From Laetmonice hystrix (taxonomy: Eukaryota): 64,000 nt of DNA. Of the stretch, positions 15,001 to 56,700 are shown piece by piece (positions within the stretch are counted from its first letter, which is position 1; each line of letters begins with the position of its first letter). The translations under genes and the position numbers were made by a program. The DNA lies in assembly GCA_965235115.1 (NCBI GenBank), contig OZ249436.1:4962001-5026000 (forward strand), given 5' to 3'. Below the pieces are notes generated by a model, which saw only the letters and a program-made list of their open reading frames with translations, had not been told where the DNA came from and did no database searches.

Positions 15001-16125
15001 ACCTTGACGACAAACAGTCATCAAACCTTGCAACGTTGTTGGACGCTTACAGATGGTCTGTAGGGGACACAGATTAGATTGGAGTAGATGATAGACCAAA
15101 CGTATGGCCTGCCTCCTGGACAATAAAGGCATGAAAACATAAAACATGAGGCGTCCCTATACTACTGGCTACTCTTGTATTCAAGCAGACGGTACAGGAA
15201 GGCCAAACAGTACAGGGAGGAATCGCTACAAGGTATACTGGCTTGCCTAGCACCCAAGCGAACACTACAGTGAGGCCGAACAGTACACTGTGGGGCCAAA
15301 CAGTGTGGTAGGCCAACCAGTAGAGTGAGAAGTCCCTACATCTTACCCGTTGGCCTCTCGTAGCCATGCAAAAACTATACAGTGAGGTAGTATAAATGAA
15401 AGGTACAGGCGAGGAGCATCTAATGTTAAAATCTGGAGAAGATACTCGAATGTTAAGTGTACACATCACAACCATATATCTGTAGCGAACGTACGAGACC
15501 TATACGTTTGACAGTTATACATCTGGCCTAAGAATAATAATTTTTGGGGGCGTAGTTTCAATTCGACGTATCATTTTTCGCTTATCATTGCTTTAACCTG
15601 TCTCTCGCCTAAGAGCCACAGGTGCCTGCCAGCCCGGCCAGGTGTACGTGGTGATTCCACCGTTGGCCGGAAGGCGGCAGTGCAGTCAGCCTCGCCGCCG
15701 CCGCTGCGCTGCACCCTGGTGTTTTCTGCCTGCACCATCTCTGTGTAATCCTCCTTTGCTTGTTCGTTACTTGGCGATGGGATATCTAATATAGAAAAGG
15801 CGTACAACGTCATTTGCCATTGTTAACTAAACCTTGACGGCAAACAGTCATCAAACCTTGCAACGTTGTTGGACGCTTACAGATGGTCTGTAGGGGACAC
15901 AGATTAGATTGGAGTAGATGATAGACCAAACGTATGGCCTGCCTCCTGGACAATAAAGGCATGGAAACATAAAACATGAGGCGTCCCTATACTACTGGCT
16001 ACTCTTGTATTCAAGCAGACGGTACAGGAAGGCCAAACAGTACAGGGAGGAATCGCTACAAGGTATACTGGCTTGCCTAGCACCCAAGCGAACACTACAG
16101 GCTCGACCACCAAAGCTCCTTTTTT

Positions 16126-16459
16126 AGGGGAGTGGCGGTGGCCTAGTGGGCATGGATGTCAACACCTTATGCTATGCGAATGGGTGCAGTAATCTTAGGG
16201 CCTGGGTTCGATTCCTGTAGAGGACTATACAACTTTTCTCTTTAGGGACATTGTCAAAGTAATTGGGTTACCCCTGATGCCCGTGCATTTCAAAAGAAAA
16301 ATACAGTCTACGCCAGTGCCAGGATTACCTTAACAGTCAATGTTCGGTAGAAATCATGTGTAGCTCTAACTAGGAAAATATGGATTCCGTCTCATTTCAA
16401 AAAGATGTGTGTAGGGGGGAGGGTCCATTGTCCTGCTCGACCACCAAAGCTCCTTTTTT
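16126..16459 (+). ncRNA. Putative 334-nt Pol III transcript (monomer from AGGGGAG to TTTTTT), predicted rod-like fold
   Basis: A box TGGCCTAGTGG at 16139-16149, B box GGTTCGATTCC at 16205-16215, and a T6 run ending each unit immediately before the next head. Extensive self-complementarity across the unit was seen by eye. Transcription is not shown, and an internal TTTT at 16234-16237 could terminate early. Confidence 0.55.
16139..16215 (+). promoter_or_regulatory. Type-2 RNA polymerase III internal promoter (A and B boxes), repeated in each 334-bp copy
   Basis: TGGCCTAGTGG matches the A-box consensus TRGCNNARYNG. GGTTCGATTCC matches the B-box consensus GGTTCGANTCC. The boxes are 55 nt apart. 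Confidence 0.75.
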
Positions 16460-19400
16460 AGGGGAGTGGCGGTGGCCTAGTGGGCATGGATGTCAACACC
16501 TTATGCTATGCGAATGGGTGCAGTAATCTTAGGGCCTGGGTTCGATTCCTGTAGAGGACTATACAACTTTTCTCTTTAGGGACATTGTCAAAGTAATTGG
16601 GTTACCCCTGATGCCCGTGCATTTCAAAAGAAAAATACAGTCTACGCCAGTGCCAGGATTACCTTAACAGTCAATGTTCGGTAGAAATCATGTGTAGCTC
16701 TAACTAGGAAAATATGGATTCCGTCTCATTTCAAAAAGATGTGTGTAGGGGGGAGGGTCCATTGTCCTGCTCGACCACCAAAGCTCCTTTTTTAGGGGAG
16801 TGGCGGTGGCCTAGTGGGCATGGATGTCAACACCTTATGCTATGCGAATGGGTGCAGTAATCTTAGGGCCTGGGTTCGATTCCTGTAGAGGACTATACAA
16901 CTTTTCTCTTTAGGGACATTGTCAAAGTAATTGGGTTACCCCTGATGCCCGTGCATTTCAAAAGAAAAATACAGTCTACGCCAGTGCCAGGATTACCTTA
17001 ACAGTCAATGTTCGGTAGAAATCATGTGTAGCTCTAACTAGGAAAATATGGATTCCGTCTCATTTCAAAAAGATGTGTGTAGGGGGGAGGGTCCATTGTC
17101 CTGCTCGACCACCAAAGCTCCTTTTTTAGGGGAGTGGCGGTGGCCTAGTGGGCATGGATGTCAACACCTTATGCTATGCGAATGGGTGCAGTAATCTTAG
17201 GGCCTGGGTTCGATTCCTGTAGAGGACTATACAACTTTTCTCTTTAGGGACATTGTCAAAGTAATTGGGTTACCCCTGATGCCCGTGCATTTCAAAAGAA
17301 AAATACAGTCTACGCCAGTGCCAGGATTACCTTAACAGTCAATGTTCGGTAGAAATCATGTGTAGCTCTAACTAGGAAAATATGGATTCCGTCTCATTTC
17401 AAAAAGATGTGTGTAGGGGGGAGGGTCCATTGTCCTGCTCGACCACCAAAGCTCCTTTTTTAGGGGAGTGGCGGTGGCCTAGTGGGCATGGATGTCAACA
17501 CCTTATGCTATGCGAATGGGTGCAGTAATCTTAGGGCCTGGGTTCGATTCCTGTAGAGGACTATACAACTTTTCTCTTTAGGGACATTGTCAAAGTAATT
17601 GGGTTACCCCTGATGCCCGTGCATTTCAAAAGAAAAATACAGTGAGGCCGAACAGTACACTGTGGGGCCAAACAGTGTGGTAGGCCAACCAGTAGAGTGA
17701 GAAGTCCCTACATCTTACCCGTTGGCCTCTCGTAGCCATGCAAAAACTACAGTGAGGTAGTATAAACGAAAGGTACAGGCGAGGAGCATCTAATGTTAAA
17801 ATCTGGAGAAGATACTCGAATGTTAAGTGTACACATCACAACCATATATCTATAGCGAACGTACGAGACCTATACGTTTGACAGTTATACATCTGGCCTA
17901 AGAATCATAATTTTTGGGGACGTAGTTTCAATTCGACGTATCATTTTTCGCTTATCATTGCTTTAACCTGTCTCTCGCCTAAGAGCCACAGGTGCCTGCC
18001 AGCCCGGCCAGGTGTACGTGGTGATTCCACCGTTGGCCGGAAGGCGGCAGTGCAGTCAGCCTCGCCGCCGCCGCTGCGCTGCACCCTGGTGTTTTCTGCC
18101 TGCACCATCTCTGTGTAATCCTCCTTTGCTTGTTCGTTACTTGGCGATGGGATATCTAATATAGAAAAGGCGTACAACGTCATTTGCCATTGTTAACTAA
18201 ACCTTGACGGCAAACAGTCATCAAACCTTGCAACGTTGTTGGACGCTTACAGATGGTCTGTAGGGGACACAGATTAGATTGGAGTAGATGATAGACCAAA
18301 CGTATGGCCTGCCTCCTGGACAATAAAGGCATGGAAACATAAAACATGAGGCGTCCCTATACTACTGGCTACTCTTGTATTCAAGCAGACGGTACAGGAA
18401 GGCCAAACAGTACAGGGAGGAATCGCTACAAGGTATACTGGCTTGCCTAGCACCCAAGCGAACACTACAGTGAGGCCGAACAGTACACTGTGGGGCCAAA
18501 CAGTGTGGTAGGCCAACCAGTAGAGTGAGAAGTCCCTACATCTTACCCGTTGGCCTATCGTAGCCATGCAAAAACTACAGTGAGGTAGTATAAACGAAAG
18601 GTACAGGCGAGGAGCATCTAATGTTAAAATCTGGAGAAGATACTCGAATGTTAAGTGTACACATCACAACCATATATCTATAGCGAACGTACGAGACCTA
18701 TACGTTTGACAGTTATACATCTGGCCTAAGAATCATAATTTTTGGAGACGTAGTTTCAATTCGACGTATCATTTTTCGCTTATCATTGCTTTAACCTGTC
18801 TCTCGCCTAAGAGCCACAGGTGCCTGCCAGCCCGGCCAGGTGTACGTGGTGATTCCACCGTTGGCCGGAAGGCGGCAGTGCAGTCAGCCTCGCCGCCGCC
18901 GCTGCGCTGCACCCTGGTGTTTTCTGCCTGCACCATCTCTGTGTAGTCCTTCTTTGCTTGTTCGTTACTTGGCGATGGGATATCTAATATAGAAAAGGCG
19001 TACAACGTCATTTGCCATTGTTAACTAAACCTTGACGGCAAACAGTCATCAAACCTTGCAACGTTGTTGGACGCTTACAGATGGTCTGTAGGGGACACAG
19101 ATTAGATTGGAGTAGATGATAGACCAAACGTATGGCCTGCCTCCTGGACAATAAAGGCATGAAAACATAAAACATGAGGCGTCCCTATACTACTGGCTAC
19201 TCTTGTATTCAAGCAGACGGTACAGGAAGGCCAAACAGTACAGGGAGGAATCGCTACAAGGTATACTGGCTTGCCTAGCACCCAAGCGAACACTACAGTG
19301 AGGCCGAACAGTACACTGTGGGGCCAAACAGTGTGGTAGGCCAACCAGTAGAGTGAGAAGTCCCTACATCTTACCCGTTGGCCTCTCGTAGCCATGCAAA

Positions 19401-29262: not shown

Positions 29263-29408
29263 GACACCTTATGCTATGCGAATGGGTGCAGTAATCTTAG
29301 GGCCTGGGTTCGGTTCCTGTAGAGGACTATACAACTTTTCTCTTTAGGGACATTGTCAAAGTAATTGGGTTACCCCTGATGCCCGTGCATTTCAAAAGAA
29401 AAATACAG
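29263..29408 (+). mobile_element. 5'-truncated copy (about 145 bp) of the 334-bp element at the same target site
   Basis: ACACCTTATGC...AAAAGAAAAATACAG matches 16162-16306 with one substitution (GGTTCGGTTCC). It is followed by TGAGGCAGAAC, the same host position as the 17642 junction. Confidence 0.92.
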
Positions 29409-29666
29409 TGAGGCAGAACAGTACACTGTGGGGCCAAGCAGTGTGGGAGGCCAACAGTAGAGTGGGAAGTCCCTACATCTTACCGGTTGGCCTCTCGTAG
29501 CCATGCAAAAACTACAGTGAGGTAGTATAAATGAAAGGTACAGGCGAGGAGCATCTAATGTTAAAATCTGGAGAAGATACTCGAATGGGAAGCGGTACAC
29601 ATCACAACCATATATCTGTAGCGAACGTACGAGACCTTATAGGTTTGCCTTGTGTGGACAGGGCAT

Positions 29667-30356
29667 AAGGCCCGACAGTACATGTAGAGAGCCCTTACTG
29701 TAGTGTTTGCTCGAGTATGACGCCAGTCAATACATGTAGGGAGCCCTCACTGTACTGTTTGCTCCAGCCCAACCCAGTCATGACATAGAGGCAGCCCTTA
29801 CTGTAGTGTTTGCTGCAGTCTGAGGCTAGTCAATACATGTAGGGAGCCCTCACTGTAATGTTTGCTCCAGTCTAAAGCTAGCCAATATACGTAGAGAGCC
29901 CTCACTGTAGTGTTTGCTTAAGTATAAGGCCAGTCAATATATATGTAGGGAGCCCTCACTGTAGGGTTTGCTCTAGCCCAAGGGCAATTTCAATACATGT
30001 AGGGAGCCCTCATTGTAGTGTTTGCTAGAGTAGATCTATAAGGCCAGTCAGTACATCTGGTGAGCCCTCACTAGTGTTTGCTCAAGTATAAGGCCAGACA
30101 GTACATGTAGAGAGCCCTCACCTTAGTGTTTGCTCGAGTATAAGGCTAGTCAATAAATGGAGGGATCCCTCACTGTAGTGTTTGCTCCAGCCCAAGGGCG
30201 GTCACTACATGTAAGGAGCCCTCACTCTAGTCTTTGCTCGATTATAAGGCCAGTCAGTACATGTGGTGAGCCCTCACTGTAGTCTTTGCTCGAGTACAGT
30301 ACATGTTGGGAGCCCTCGCAGAGTGGTTGCTCGAGTATAAGGCCAGTCAATATTAT
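29667..30356. repeat. About 52-bp minisatellite, about 13 diverged copies; resumes at 35004-35058 after a transposon
   Basis: Consensus is approximately CATGTAGGGAGCCCTCACTGTAGTGTTTGCTCGAGTATAAGGCCAGTCAATA. One more unit follows the TIR element from 35011. Confidence 0.92.
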
Positions 30357-37758: not shown

Positions 37759-39651
37759 TCAGTGAAGATCCATAGCATTGAAGGTCAGCGTACAACAGAG
37801 TGGCCGATTTACATGTTCTGGGTAGCTGGTCATCTCTGTCTGTGCCTCAGCTGACGAGTACTGCCACCGATTTCTGGCAACAAGTGGGTCATAGCACACA
37901 CACGCCCTCTCCTGGCAAGGACGTACACCATCGACAGCCGCACTTTTCCCATTAATGAAATAGATCTTGTTGTCAACGGCCACTACTGTGGCGCCACCTG
38001 GCAGTTTCTCATGTAGTTTGTGTTTCTCCCAGTGAAAGTTCACGGGGTCATACGTCACAATAGACTGCCCTGATCGAGGTACAATGTACACCATTTTCTG
38101 TGGTTGCCAGACAATTGGCCAGAGTGGCTTTTTCTGTCCAAATAACTCCATCATAGTGTGCCCTGCCATGGCGATTTTCATTGGGATGTGTGGGTGCCAC
38201 TTGTTAGTGACAGGATCATAACTTTGTACATCTTTAGATGTTTTAAGGTTGCCACTGTTGTCCCAGTAGTTGCCACCAGACACAAGAATAACATTCTCAG
38301 TGACAACTGCACTCAGAGCTGCCAGTTTCTGCTCCATTCTTGTCACCACCTTCCATTCGTCCTCAGCAAAATTGTATCGCTCAACAGCATTTGTGAACTC
38401 GGCATTGCGGACTTCACCTCCCAAGGCATAGACGTGGTTGTCATAAGTAACAAGTGCAAAATCTGCCCGTGGGAAGTTCATGGATGCCAGTCGACCCCAC
38501 TTATGTGACCGGGGATCAAAAATGTGGCAGGCGCTGGTGGCAAGGCCAACTGATGAAGTTTTAAACCCACCACAGACAACCATGAAGTTATTGACAACTG
38601 CCACTGAGGCATGATGGAAACTGAACTCTGTGGGTACGTGGCATTTTGCTCGAGTTCGACCCTTGGCTATAGGCTTCCACTCATGGCCCTGGTATATGAA
38701 CATAGAACTACTTCTTCTCTCTGGGTAGAACTGCTGCTCTGGTTCAAGGCGTCCAGACAGACTCACAATCACTTTCTCCCCACGAACTCTCGTCCATTCA
38801 GTATTGTTAAGCACCCTCTCATACAACGGTTTCTTTTTGTACTCCAAGGCCTTTTCCACAATTTCACGGCAGGCAGGATCCCCTCCTAAGAAAGCCCGAT
38901 TTTTCAACAATTCATTAAGTTTGCCAAGAGTCATCAGTGGGAGTCGGATCACGCTGAGAGCCTGTTTGACTTCAGACTGTCGCCGTACAGGGTCTTCATC
39001 CAGCCAGCTCTTCACCAGACCCAGGAGGTAGTCCTCTGGCTGATGTAGAGTCCCTTGGGACAAAACATACCGGAGGGCTTCAATACTGAGCCTCAGAAAA
39101 TGTCCTTCCTCGACCACTGTATCTAGGTTCTCTGTGAGACAATCCACAACCTGTTGGTCTAACTTGACACGTTCTGACTGCAAGTGATACATGAAGACAA
39201 GGTTAAGGACATCGACACAGTTATCAACGTCCACCGCATCTTCAAGGAACCCCATGCAGGTCTCAGTGACCACTGTCACCTGGAGATGGGAGGCAGCTGC
39301 CAGAACATCAAGGATGTTTTCTCGTGTCAATCCCAGAGGTTTCTCTGTGTAAAAGTACTCCAGGAGAGGCTCCAGGCCCGCTGCTGTCACACCCTTTAAC
39401 TCCACACTATCCTCACGGCTCTCCTGCATGCTCCCCTCGAACATCACTCGGAAGAAATCACTCACCGCTGCCATGATAACACGATGAACTTTGAAGGATT
39501 TATCCTCTACAATGATCGTGTAATCGAGAAGTGCACTGTTTGTCCACAGAGTTTGGATACCCCCGAGAAGACACTTCCCCAAACGTGCTATCTTGTGATG
39601 GCGTTCCTCCATCTCCCAGAAATCATCCATCTCAGAGCGTGGCACTGCCAT
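37759..39651 (-). CDS. Kelch-like protein (BTB-BACK-Kelch repeats), 630 aa, CDS in a single exon
   Basis: BTB motif (DYTIIVEDKSFKVHRVIMAAVSDFFRVMF), BACK region (VDNCVDVL...WLDEDPVRR..IRLPLM), and Kelch repeats with GG and W (VYALGGE...VERYNFAEDEW; LVSGGN...SYDPVTNKW). A splice acceptor lies just upstream of the ATG. Confidence 0.93.
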   Translation of the reverse strand: MAVPRSEMDDFWEMEERHHKIARLGKCLLGGIQTLWTNSALLDYTIIVEDKSFKVHRVIMAAVSDFFRVMFEGSMQESREDSVELKGVTAAGLEPLLEYFYTEKPLGLTRENILDVLAAASHLQVTVVTETCMGFLEDAVDVDNCVDVLNLVFMYHLQSERVKLDQQVVDCLTENLDTVVEEGHFLRLSIEALRYVLSQGTLHQPEDYLLGLVKSWLDEDPVRRQSEVKQALSVIRLPLMTLGKLNELLKNRAFLGGDPACREIVEKALEYKKKPLYERVLNNTEWTRVRGEKVIVSLSGRLEPEQQFYPERRSSSMFIYQGHEWKPIAKGRTRAKCHVPTEFSFHHASVAVVNNFMVVCGGFKTSSVGLATSACHIFDPRSHKWGRLASMNFPRADFALVTYDNHVYALGGEVRNAEFTNAVERYNFAEDEWKVVTRMEQKLAALSAVVTENVILVSGGNYWDNSGNLKTSKDVQSYDPVTNKWHPHIPMKIAMAGHTMMELFGQKKPLWPIVWQPQKMVYIVPRSGQSIVTYDPVNFHWEKHKLHEKLPGGATVVAVDNKIYFINGKSAAVDGVRPCQERACVCYDPLVARNRWQYSSAEAQTEMTSYPEHVNRPLCCTLTFNAMDLH

Positions 39652-40294
39652 CTTTTTGGCATCCTAAACAGATTACAAAACACTAGTGTAAGCATTCTCA
39701 CAAAACTAGACATTGGGATTAAAGGTTGGGGAATGGAGAGGGATATCTGTTGGCCCCTAAGCCTAAGAGTAGCCTTTATAATTTTTTGAAAATAATCAAA
39801 TGAACAATATTATTAGCTTTAATTTATTTATTTAATTTGCTAAAACATTGCAATGATGTAATGTTTATATCCAATTGACCTTGTTTGTAGGTCAAGGGTT
39901 GGGCAGTGTAATAATTTATGAGTGCCCCCAATAACAACATTACAATGCTTTTCCTATGGTGAGAGAGCTTGTGAGGACTGATTTGATGGCATGACCAAAG
40001 AATTCATGTGAAAAAGCAGAAATCCACCCAGGAACAGCTGCAAAGTGCACAAATATGCAAGTGTGTGAAGTTTGGGTCCGTGCGAAGTACAAAAGATTTA
40101 CAATTTAGGGAGGTTTGGGGACCGAGGGTGTGAGAGAGGCACTGTTCCTAATTCTATTATTACGCCTGTGAAAAACTCAATACAGTCATCTAGAAAAGCT
40201 GTACTCCAAAGTAATAGGTAAAAAAAAAAAATGGCATGGGATGGTCACTACATCTGGTGGCAGAGAACGGTACTAATATGTCCTATTGGATTAA

Positions 40295-53700: not shown

Positions 53701-56700
53701 TCTAAAACAGCTTCTACGCTGAGAAGAAATGGAAAACCCCGCCTTCCTTGTCATGCTTGCAACATTAACCACTGGAGTCATTCAAAGAGAGGACAGCGTT
53801 TGTTTATACAGCCACAGGCTGTGTGCTGACTCCCCGCAGTCTCTTCAGGGGTATAATGTTTGTTTACCGGCATTGTAGTAGCAGAACCTTTGTGAAGTGA
53901 GGACTACTAATTACAGACTTGACGTGTAGGCAGACTGAGGGACATATTGTGAGGACTACTAGTTACAGACTTGATGTGTAGGCAGACTGAGGGACATGTT
54001 GTGGGGACTCCTAGTTACAGACTTGATGTGTAGGTAGACAGAGGGACATATTGTGAGGACTACTAATTACAGACTTGATGTGTAGGTAGACTGAGGGACA
54101 TATTGTGGGGACTACTAGTTACAGACTTGATGTGTAGGTAGACTGAGGGACATATTGTGAGGACTACTAGTTACAGACTTGATGTGTAGGTAGACTGAGG
54201 GACATATTGTGGGGACTCCTAGTTACAGACTTGATGTGTAGGTAGACAGAGGGACATATTGTGAGGACTACTAATTACAGACTTGATGTGTAGGTAGACT
54301 GAGGGACATATTGTGGGGACTACTAGTTACAGACTTGATGTGTAGGTAGACTGAGGGACATATTGTGAGGACTACTAGTTACAGACTTGATGTGTAGGTA
54401 GACTGAGGGACATATTGTGAGGACTACTAGTTACAGACTTGATGTGTAGGTAGACTGAGGGACATATTGTGGGGACTACTAGTTACAGACTTGATGTGTA
54501 GGTAGACTGAGGGACATATTGTGAGGACTACTAATTACAGACTTGATGTGTAGGTAGACTGAGGGACATATTGTGAGGACTACTAATTACAGACTTGACG
54601 TGTAGGCAGACTGAGGGACATATTGTGAGGATTACTAATTACAGACTTGATGTGTAGGTAGACTGAGGGACATATTGTGAGGACTACTAATTACAGACTT
54701 GACGTGCAGGTAGACTGAGGGACATATTGTGAGGACTACTAATTACAGACTTGACGTGTAGGCAGACTGAGGGACATATTGTGAGGACTACTAATTACAG
54801 ACTTGACGTGTAGGCAGACTGAGGGACATATTGTGAGGATTACTAATTACAGACTTGACGTGCAGGTAGACTGAGGGACATATTGTGAGGACTACTAATT
54901 ACAGACTTGATGTGTAGGCAGACTGAGGGACATATTGTGAGGACTACTAATTACAGACTTGACGTGTAGGTAGACTAAGGGACATATTGTGAGGACTACT
55001 AGTTAGAGACTTGACCTGTAGGTAGACTGAGGGACATATTGTCAAATTGAGAGAAATCACATATGTCACAGTAGTTTGGCTATCACATCTCTTTACTGAA
55101 CCTATCCCTCACAGTTCTCTGCAAGAGATCTAAAGTATTTCTATCAGACAAAGCAAAAAGTCAAAGAGATCTAAAGTAAACTGCACAGTGTAGATTGCTT
55201 ACAGATCGACTTGGGATGATGCAAGTAGTTTTTATCTCTAGTCAAAACATGAGGTGTAAAAATGATGTTTTACTTGAGTTCCCCAACAATGAGAAAATCA
55301 CCCCAGCACGTTTCAGAGTTAAGTTTAACTTTAGAACTTATACTAGAACGTAGCAAAGCTGAGTTGGAATGGGCGAACCTATGGACCAATGAAAGAGACT
55401 TAATGTCACCAGTTGATCAATATGTGTGATCATGTTTGTCTGGTTCAGATGGCTGTGGTATCGCAGGACTACCGGGTATTTAAACAATGGGTACTTAGAC
55501 CAGAAGTAGACGTCTTTTAACTGAGGGCCTTCTTCTTTCAGAACGTAATGGTGAAGAAGGAGGTTTTCACAGTGTTCTTTCAGGGCGAGCAGCTGAGGAG
55601 CAGGGTCAGGAAGATCTGTGAAGGGTAAGCTCAGTTTGATCTTCTCCACTCTCAGAATCTCAGGACTGGGGAGAGGGAGAAGGAGTCTGGAATGTAAATG
55701 CTGGACTATGCATTTCTGTCAGTCTACTTTGTAGAAATCAAGTTTCAGAACTATAACTGTCAGGTACTTTGCTGAAAGAAATCTCTCAAGATATCTTTGA
55801 AGGTAAGAGACATGACCAATTCTTTTTGTATGCTAAGTTGGAAAGAGATTGTTGCCAGCTTGATGCTCTCATTTTGACCGCTGTGTGTTCGACCTTCAGG
55901 TTTCGGGCAGTGCTCTACCCCTGCCCTGAAACCAGCATGGAGAGACATGAAATGTTGAAGGGAGCACAGGACAGGATCAAAGACTTAGATGTGGTAAGTA
56001 GACAACCTCGAGCGCAGCATCAGCTTTGTAATATTTGATAAAGTACATGTAGTAGGATTCCTGGAGAATATGATTATTCAAAATCTTACTTGTTTTGTTG
56101 ACACTACATCTAAGTTGTGTTATATTCAACTGTCTCAGAATCTAAAATGCTTGAACGAGTCCTACTTCTGTGTATTAAATATACATTGTAGGTGTCAAAA
56201 TCTTACTTGTTTTGTTGACACTACATCTAAGTTGTGTTATATTCAACTGTCTCAGAATCTAAAATGCTTGAACGAGTCCTACTTCTGTTTATTAAATATA
56301 CGTTGTAGGTGTCAAAATCTTCAAGAATCTTTGATTTAAGTGATGGAGTCTAAAGATGTACTTAGTAATTTATCCAACTATACAGTGCTAAGATTCCCAG
56401 ATCATCATTTGATGGTCAGAGTTGTTCTGTCCCTAACATAGCTACTGTCCCCATCCAGGTCATCCAGCAGTCTCAGGAGCAGCGTCGTCGGGTTCTGGAA
56501 TCCATCACTCGTAACTTCACCACCTGGACCATGAAGGTGTTCAAAGTGAAGGCCATCTTCCACACCCTCAACCAGTTCCGTGCTGAGCATCACAGCTTCA
56601 TTGCTGAGGGATGGTGCCCCGTCAATGACATGGACCGCATCCAGCAAGCTTTGTCTCATGCTGCCGTCAGTTTTAACCTTATTTCTATGTATACATGTAG

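Follow-up and report, generated by a model that had tools for sequence, protein, structure and literature searches.

A 64,000-nucleotide stretch of the genome of Laetmonice hystrix (GenBank assembly GCA_965235115.1, contig OZ249436.1, positions 4,962,001 to 5,026,000 of the forward strand; here termed the window) contains a head-to-tail insertion of a 334-bp sequence. This insertion is a young copy of a high-copy mobile RNA element that encodes no protein. The 334-bp element is almost certainly non-autonomous and parasitic on a Penelope-like element (PLE) in the same genome, of the type found at locus L085, because the two share unit positions 123 to 206, an end site and their targets; on the strength of the same shared features, the PLE protein would mobilize the element in trans. 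Genomic evidence for rolling-circle reverse transcription of this element is suggestive and indirect. As judged from sequence comparison, a covalent circle of the unit RNA was probably, by a modest degree of belief, lapped by the PLE reverse transcriptase (RT). The fuller proposal, that an RNA polymerase III (Pol III) transcript without a known ribozyme was circularized at its terminator-to-start boundary and served as the rolling-circle template for the PLE RT, is plausible and is put forward tentatively.

Unit numbering was set with position 1 at 16126 of the window. The 334-bp periodicity extended without mismatch over 16101 to 17643 (1,543 bp, 4.62 units, with the copy number taken from the assembly), and five CTCC-T6-AGGGGAG junctions were present, at 16116, 16450, 16784, 17118 and 17452, bearing out an earlier note on this DNA that had described a 4.6-mer of identical 334-nt units with five identical junctions. 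The insertion added 1,542 bp to one unit of a host satellite (spacing of 2,370 bp versus 828 to 830 bp elsewhere) at AACAC/TACAG/TGAGG, with TACAG on either side (16096 to 16100 and 17638 to 17642). It begins at unit position 310, that is, 25 nt upstream of the head as the earlier note had stated, and stops at about position 181 (176 to 182). Two further inserts (L017 and L042) shared the left end at 310. The right end, fixed throughout the family and not a random internal break, would be the priming site, and the left end a truncation. All five heads of the array had A36, where most sampled copies had G. The features of the insertion and its host satellite are as follows.

16101 to 17642, plus strand: 4.62-unit head-to-tail insertion of the 334-bp element (unit 310 to 334, four full units, unit 1 to 181).
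16126 to 16459, plus strand: one full unit, from the head to T6, with repeats at 16460, 16794 and 17128 and a partial unit at 17462 to 17642.
16096 to 16100, plus strand: left TACAG, a 5-bp target duplication or the host half of the target; the right copy is at 17638 to 17642.
17633 to 17643, plus strand: fixed 3′ end and putative internal RT priming site, AAAAA^TACAGT (unit 172 to 182), common to PLE 3′ ends.
29264 to 29409, plus strand: second, 5′-truncated copy (unit 37 to 182) in a further satellite unit, at the corresponding site.
1 to 29620, strand not assigned: 828- to 830-bp host satellite with the CAC^TACAG target; PLEs are inserted in the same repeat family elsewhere.

Searches of the genome (627 Mb, 35 contigs) detected 5,275 matches to a motif upstream of unit position 180 and 1,870 exact copies of the T6-A junction of the window, each with a control count of 0. 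The element was dispersed as clusters of 1 to ∼18 copies at unit spacing among the matches listed, a trait of retrozymes, which also occur as noncoding tandem units of 150 to 450 bp in short dispersed arrays. No large satellite of the 334-bp unit, which the earlier note had named as a possible source, was found in the genome, where the family is dispersed as arrays of 1 to ∼18 copies. Ends were examined at 25 loci and, within the first 19 Mb of contig C1, at 40 clusters taken in order of position, the first set being chosen with a motif lacking TAC and the second with one that included it. The 3′ ends were fixed at unit 176 to 184 (AAAA^TACAG), and the 5′ ends were variable (L005 to L070). Where an empty repeat unit could be compared, the target was CAC^nACAG, of which 3 to 6 nt match the ACAG(TC) of the element; target duplications ranged from 0 to ∼55 bp across the loci read. 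From a fixed 3′ end and variable 5′ ends, we infer target-primed reverse transcription (TPRT) begun inside the RNA. Over half of the head copies were preceded by the element's own tail, and the proposal of the earlier note that the insert was retrotransposed, from a template that must have held tail-to-head joins, was upheld.

Several other observations on the family were made. Full-length monomers starting at the head (L044, L047 and L052) had target duplications of ∼55, 24 and 13 bp, while 5′-truncated inserts mostly had none, and many head-start copies carried an extra G at position 1. A reading of the element as a long terminal repeat (LTR) retrotransposon or terminal-repeat retrotransposon in miniature, with apparent ends at 285 and 50, was rejected because those ends arose from search margins; the true 3′ end is fixed at 176 to 184 and the 5′ end is variable. 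A 364-nt contig from a second organism (run X5) contained a whole unit and a junction with three differences and, therefore, the element family is also present in that organism. The 828-bp satellite and an adjoining 52-bp minisatellite (29665 to 30352, opposite strand) have the motif CAAACACTACAGTGAG in common, and both are targets of the 334-bp element and of the PLE. Because inserts flanked by identical sequence turned up repeatedly (L055, L071, L072, L073 and L077), these two repeats may be part of a mobile DNA carrier.

The putative helper was found by a scan for GIY-YIG domains and is a young PLE family with a 759-amino-acid (aa) frame. Its copies form dispersed head-to-tail arrays of 2 to 7 copies with a period of 5,569 to 5,609 bp (∼5.58 kb), which was mostly constant inside one array and array specific; a private variant was present in all three sampled copies of one array. 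One period (L085) consists of an 839-aa open reading frame (ORF1) overlapping ORF2, which encodes an RT (RVT_1; E value, 5.5e-10) together with a C-terminal GIY-YIG endonuclease (E value, 8.2e-9) in a single frame, with a linker Cys motif visible in the translation. Directly 3′ of the ORF2 stop, a PLE segment (L085 604 to 709) is homologous to unit 123 to 206 (E values of 1.8e-6 and 0.003), flanking AAAATACAGT.

16248 to 16331, plus strand: PLE-homologous segment, unit 123 to 206 (∼85 nt), matching L085 604 to 709 and covering both sides of the priming site.

Nineteen of 20 terminal PLE copies ended at AAAA^TAC and ran into the same satellite family and minisatellites as the 334-bp element; the other region no longer held PLE sequence. 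The same end was seen in 52 terminal copies in L031 to L070, loci that had been chosen by the motif including TAC. Thus, the features looked for in a non-autonomous PLE were all present, namely, sequence shared with the PLE, the same end and target, 5′ truncation and head-to-tail tandems. The 3′ end of the insertion would be explained by internal initiation of reverse transcription by the PLE helper, which the earlier note had missed. A predicted hammerhead-type motif is present in the PLE at approximately L085 1411 to 1453, ∼730 nt beyond the part shared with the unit. It has the extra nucleotide before stem II and the palindromic loop 3 that are given for PLE hammerheads in the consulted portion of PMC4209133. 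Rfam did not detect this hammerhead, its sole match in L085 being a chance one to CsrC.

Further observations concern the PLE and its relatives. One array of 5.58-kb copies lies at contig C7:18340570-18374328, and arrays reach 7 copies. A TTTAAAC heptamer (L085 3902), which we take to be a slippery site, lies where ORF1 and ORF2 of L085 overlap in the −1 frame. ORF1 (L085 1392 to 3911) has a NADAR domain (Pfam E value, 3e-24) and an SGNH/GDSL-like domain; the terms NADAR and SGNH are absent from the main text of PMC8557442. A difference at L085 position 657, considered as a distinction between internal and terminal PLE copies, was private to that copy and was discarded. A second GIY-YIG family with a 789-aa frame, possibly a subtelomeric PLE, was found near contig ends (C2:22011, C6:5237, C15:38002, C17:28026, C18:8200 and C21:23535194), and GIY-YIG frames of 2,386 and 2,444 aa were present at C2:9593361 and C32:4418. 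A genome scan with RVT_1 gave at least 150 RT matches.

The head of the unit is Pol III-like, consistent with the promoter head described in the earlier note, and the boxes suggest that the unit would be transcribed by Pol III. The relevant features are the following.

16139 to 16149, plus strand: A-box-like motif, unit 14 to 24, from motif comparison.
16205 to 16215, plus strand: B-box-like motif, unit 80 to 90, with the same sequence as the T-loop segment in the consensus of Rfam's tmRNA model.
16441 to 16459, plus strand: 3′ arm of the terminal stem, pairing with unit 2 to 16, and T6 terminator-like run; the variable junction lies where this run meets the next head.

Monomer 5′ ends clustered at unit 1 to 6, with the boxes at unit 14 and 80; both boxes and 5′ ends lying 11 to 13 nt upstream of box A are as looked for in a tRNA-derived short interspersed element (SINE). 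An older subfamily of the element carries T19G in the A-box-like motif, a form nearer to the tRNA D arm. Internal T4 and terminal T6 runs are present at 109 to 112 and 329 to 334. Pair probabilities in the terminal stem were 0.97 to 1.0 for unit 3 to 8 and 12 to 16, and a hairpin across the junction in read-through RNA had a z score of −2.3 in one of 34 windows.

Searches of the unit for known RNAs were negative. No meaningful Rfam match was detected in the unit or the satellite by gathering and E-value thresholds, and ARAGORN with default settings found no tRNA in the unit; a relaxed ARAGORN run gave matches everywhere and was discarded as noise. A DNA search with unit 184 to 284 yielded no candidates, an outcome that carries little information. 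No hammerhead was found in the circularized unit on either strand with a relaxed core search, which yielded three one-mismatch cores, two of them with a downstream GAAA and, by eye, without stem II/III. The type I hammerhead present in each unit of animal non-LTR retrozymes is, thus, lacking from the 334-bp element by Rfam and core search. A hammerhead cut at GUC-183 was rejected, as stem II/III were missing and the GUC is often part of the target. The unit may have a ribozyme of an unknown class. Unit 151 to 176 and 258 to 283 appeared by eye to be a degenerate internal duplication of a motif containing CATTTCAAAA.

Evidence for one circular template per insertion event came from variation within and between arrays. 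Private variants were uniform across all units of L035, L048, L067, L083, L084 and L106/107. At many loci, the junction type was constant within the array and different between arrays, the pattern that the earlier note had named as support for one circle per event. A T5 junction was found in L007 and T7 junctions in L048 and L067, while a junction lacking the A was present at six junctions in L083, five in L084 and, among the matches listed, ten in an array on contig C20. A T5-AA junction was found in 18 copies of one array on contig C7, and a T5-CA junction was also detected; the no-A, T5-AA and T5-CA forms recurred on different haplotypes. Among the first 100 of 165 matches, ten arrays had a non-T base at unit 334, one of them with 18 copies; position 144, which has the TT-A context too and served as a control, gave 52 matches that included no unit-spaced tandem cluster, but this control lies within the PLE-derived segment and may be constrained. 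The start of four inserts (L084, L109, L075 and L082) lies past position 183, so that the junction had to be traversed twice, and each insert repeats one rare junction feature. A one-junction seed of such a locus would have contained no repeat from which to expand.

Stops at the head were compared between laps. There were 2,816 junction-preceded heads, of which 1,560 continue past the priming site, and 143 heads without a preceding A, of which, among 100 listed, 68 were preceded by G or C (hand count). Ten G/C-preceded heads continued past 183, comprising 7 mutated in-array junctions and 3 sites (2 events) that were true starts; the reading was confined to these 10 sites and another 2 with head starts. 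Head stops amounted to ∼81 versus 1,256 passes in lap one (∼6%) and to 3 sites (2 events) versus 1,560 passes in later laps (0.2 to 0.4%), a comparison whose P values are overstated because it uses G/C-preceded starts only, with A1 starts left out, is extrapolated from 100 of the 143 heads and counts DNA-level duplicates. Nor is it clean, because lap-one stops may come from different source loci, that is, monomer loci unable to make multimers. The position-ordered sample contained 9 stops in 30 first passes and 0 in 8 second passes, which is too small to decide the matter; this tally left out pieces that were interrupted or rearranged, in L037, L041, L046, L060 and L063 and in parts of L042, L044, L048, L062 and L070.

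The limits on the control position, the lap comparison and the position-ordered sample count against a circle, and so do the following observations. T6-A was present in 73 of 138 junction rows, in which overlapping and duplicated loci were partly retained, T7 was commoner than T5, and two loci (L057 and L075) combine T7 with G217A; the dominance of T6-A and the excess of T7 over T5 resemble the outcome of inheritance with slippage more than that of newly ligated, terminated transcripts. As T6-A is the majority form of the family, the five identical junctions of the window, from which the earlier note had derived a circle or multimer, are weak evidence alone, real as their invariance is. Discordant two-junction inserts (about six: L008a, L046, L061, L017b, L111 and L009) were about as many as concordant ones. 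Haplotypes were mixed in L021, L006 and L111, L007 and L020 alternate with a period of 2, and inserts duplicated together with their flanks (L050 and L032/L033) demonstrated DNA-level duplication. Besides the circular or multimeric template of the earlier note, other templates and DNA-level duplication also play a part, as the mosaics L021, L111 and L008a and the period-2 arrays show. The T4 run at 109 to 112 would have to be read through, and the unit as a whole folds no better than shuffled sequences (z score, 0.08). Finally, the PLE protein studied in PMC11167929 primed in vitro without homology between RNA and target, unlike the microhomology suggested here.

Several of these observations favor an explanation without a circle, in which the template is a long read-through RNA of an existing array, made by Pol II or by leaky Pol III, and the uniformity of arrays is due to tandem expansion at the DNA level, at source as well as daughter loci, with the element being the same PLE parasite. 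For the most part, the T6-A junction is conserved, and it gives the impression of being inherited, as does T7 together with G217A; the period-2 and flank-duplicated loci prove that DNA-level duplication occurs, and multimers with few head stops are consistent with a transcript begun upstream. However, the complete list for the one assembly contained no source or sister locus with the junction and haplotype of L084, and junction-position variants occurred on several haplotypes far oftener than variants at the control site. A T6 run is also expected to block Pol III read-through. Read-through is, on this evidence, unlikely but is the alternative that survives best.

Less probable again are linear Pol III monomers on which the RT jumps from the 5′ end to the 3′ U tail of the same or another molecule, forming a noncovalent pseudo-circle. 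Linear RNAs starting at unit 1 to 6 were clearly used (9 of 24 junction-less inserts), the terminal stem could serve such jumps, some junctions have an untemplated-looking A or C, and L111 and L021 are mosaic; template jumping is known for the R2 RT, as covered in the consulted part of PMC11194090. With every jump, however, the untemplated base should be chosen afresh and a chance to stop at the head should arise, whereas rare junctions were unchanged within arrays, including the two-junction inserts L109 and L082, and head stops were approximately 10-fold rarer in later laps.

Repeated in-register insertion of monomers into the element's own TACAG is very improbable: the target motif is present in every unit, a single site commonly holds a stack of inserts (L017, L029, L055 and L071) and the left flank of L073 is the same as that of the head-start monomers L071/L072, but mixed haplotypes and out-of-register joints are predicted, while the window array, L035, L048, L050, L083 and L084 were uniform, and a junction-containing template would still be required. 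A DNA-level copy of a 334-bp satellite or an assembly artifact is scarcely credible, for, while the window copies are 100% identical, lie within a near-identical satellite and have a copy number known from the assembly only, there are ∼5,300 dispersed copies whose 3′ end is fixed and that show 5′ truncation and target duplications, a matching PLE exists, and collapse or expansion errors would not yield private array variants across hundreds of loci.

The circular-template reading can be set out as a series of putative steps. Pol III would transcribe the 334-nt unit from the A and B boxes. The PLE protein would nick the target, and the freed DNA end, annealing by 3 to 6 nt to ACAG(UC) at unit 178 to 183, would prime reverse transcription internally in the unit RNA. 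Linear RNAs would give SINE-like monomer inserts that end at the head and measure up to ∼180 bp. A fraction of the RNA would be joined tail to head at the boundary between the U run and the head, the ends being held together by the terminal stem, and the RT would lap a single circle repeatedly until it dropped off, leaving identical units that share the junction of that molecule. Later unequal crossover and reinsertion in the element's own TACAG could add further copies and mosaics. Joining could come about if a Pol III monomer is processed and then ligated, or if read-through RNA is cut in the U6-A hairpin loop and RtcB-type ligation follows. To our knowledge, RtcB cannot join a 5′-triphosphate to a 3′-OH and, therefore, the ends would need processing. 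One might speculate that a cut in the U6-A loop would yield RtcB-compatible ends and preserve T6-A, reconciling inheritance with junction variability. Initiation of reverse transcription internal to the RNA has been demonstrated in vitro for a PLE protein, and hammerhead cleavage was unnecessary for PLE insertion in that system (available text of PMC11167929); the idea that PLE tandems are made from circular templates dates from 2014 (PMC4209133, as far as consulted).

Two features elsewhere in the window were also observed, namely, an intronless 634-aa frame on the minus strand (37759 to 39663) that resembles BTB-BACK-Kelch proteins by eye and a different 52-bp minisatellite at 53897 to 55042 (22 copies, 95% matches).

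The 334-bp element is relevant to the question of what causes the head-to-tail tandem insertion of PLEs and retrozymes, for in this element a tandem outcome is seen without need of a recognizable hammerhead. With a young 334-nt substrate (∼5,300 copies), intact helper copies and a recognition segment of ∼85 nt, rolling-circle TPRT becomes directly testable. If the fuller proposal is correct, circular retrotransposition intermediates would be reached by a SINE-type route that needs no ribozyme, and each of hundreds of genomic arrays would record the ligation junction of one RNA molecule.

Comparison with known systems places the 334-bp element between several of them. tRNA-derived SINEs have an A/B-box head, a segment derived from the helper, which is a long interspersed element (LINE), and an A tail or repeat tail. 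The 334-bp element resembles them in its A/B-box head, helper-derived segment and ∼180-bp monomers running from the head to the priming site, but its probable helper is a PLE instead of a LINE, the segment found to be shared being with a PLE and internal to the RNA; the A tail or repeat tail is missing and priming would occur in the middle of the RNA. It would, thus, add a SINE-like element with a tRNA promoter and a PLE as helper; no published example was found in titles and abstract openings, a search with most subscription journals and Repbase/Dfam outside its scope. SINE-like Pol III repeats of schistosomes are likewise tandem, non-autonomous and of Pol III type, but a hammerhead releases the schistosome repeats from multimers, and no helper is named in the portion of PMC6765202 consulted. 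Sequence features of non-autonomous PLEs are shared with Chlamys elements such as MRC1 (PMC8557442, in part), which, unlike the 334-bp element, are green algal and have partners with an N-terminal endonuclease, with no tRNA-type promoter mentioned in that portion of the article; the partner here is an animal PLE with a C-terminal endonuclease and a hammerhead. The Poseidon PLE of Anolis shows tandems, 5′ truncation, internal RT initiation and a need for sequence beyond the initiation site (PMC11167929, in part). Poseidon is, however, autonomous, cuts AT-rich DNA and primes without homology, whereas the 334-bp element targets CAC^nACAG with an apparent microhomology of 3 to 6 nt. Animal non-LTR retrozymes, whose RNA is expressed in linear and circular forms, are similar in having protein-less tandem units of 150 to 450 bp, a GC content of <50% and few copies per array, and both PLE dependence and rolling insertion from circular RNA have been proposed for them (PMC7229834 and bioRxiv 10.64898/2026.07.22.740005, each in part). 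Unlike these retrozymes, the 334-bp element has no hammerhead that could be found; its PLE-derived part is the RT priming region rather than a hammerhead, it carries A and B boxes and a T6 run, and it is tied to its partner by shared ends and targets.

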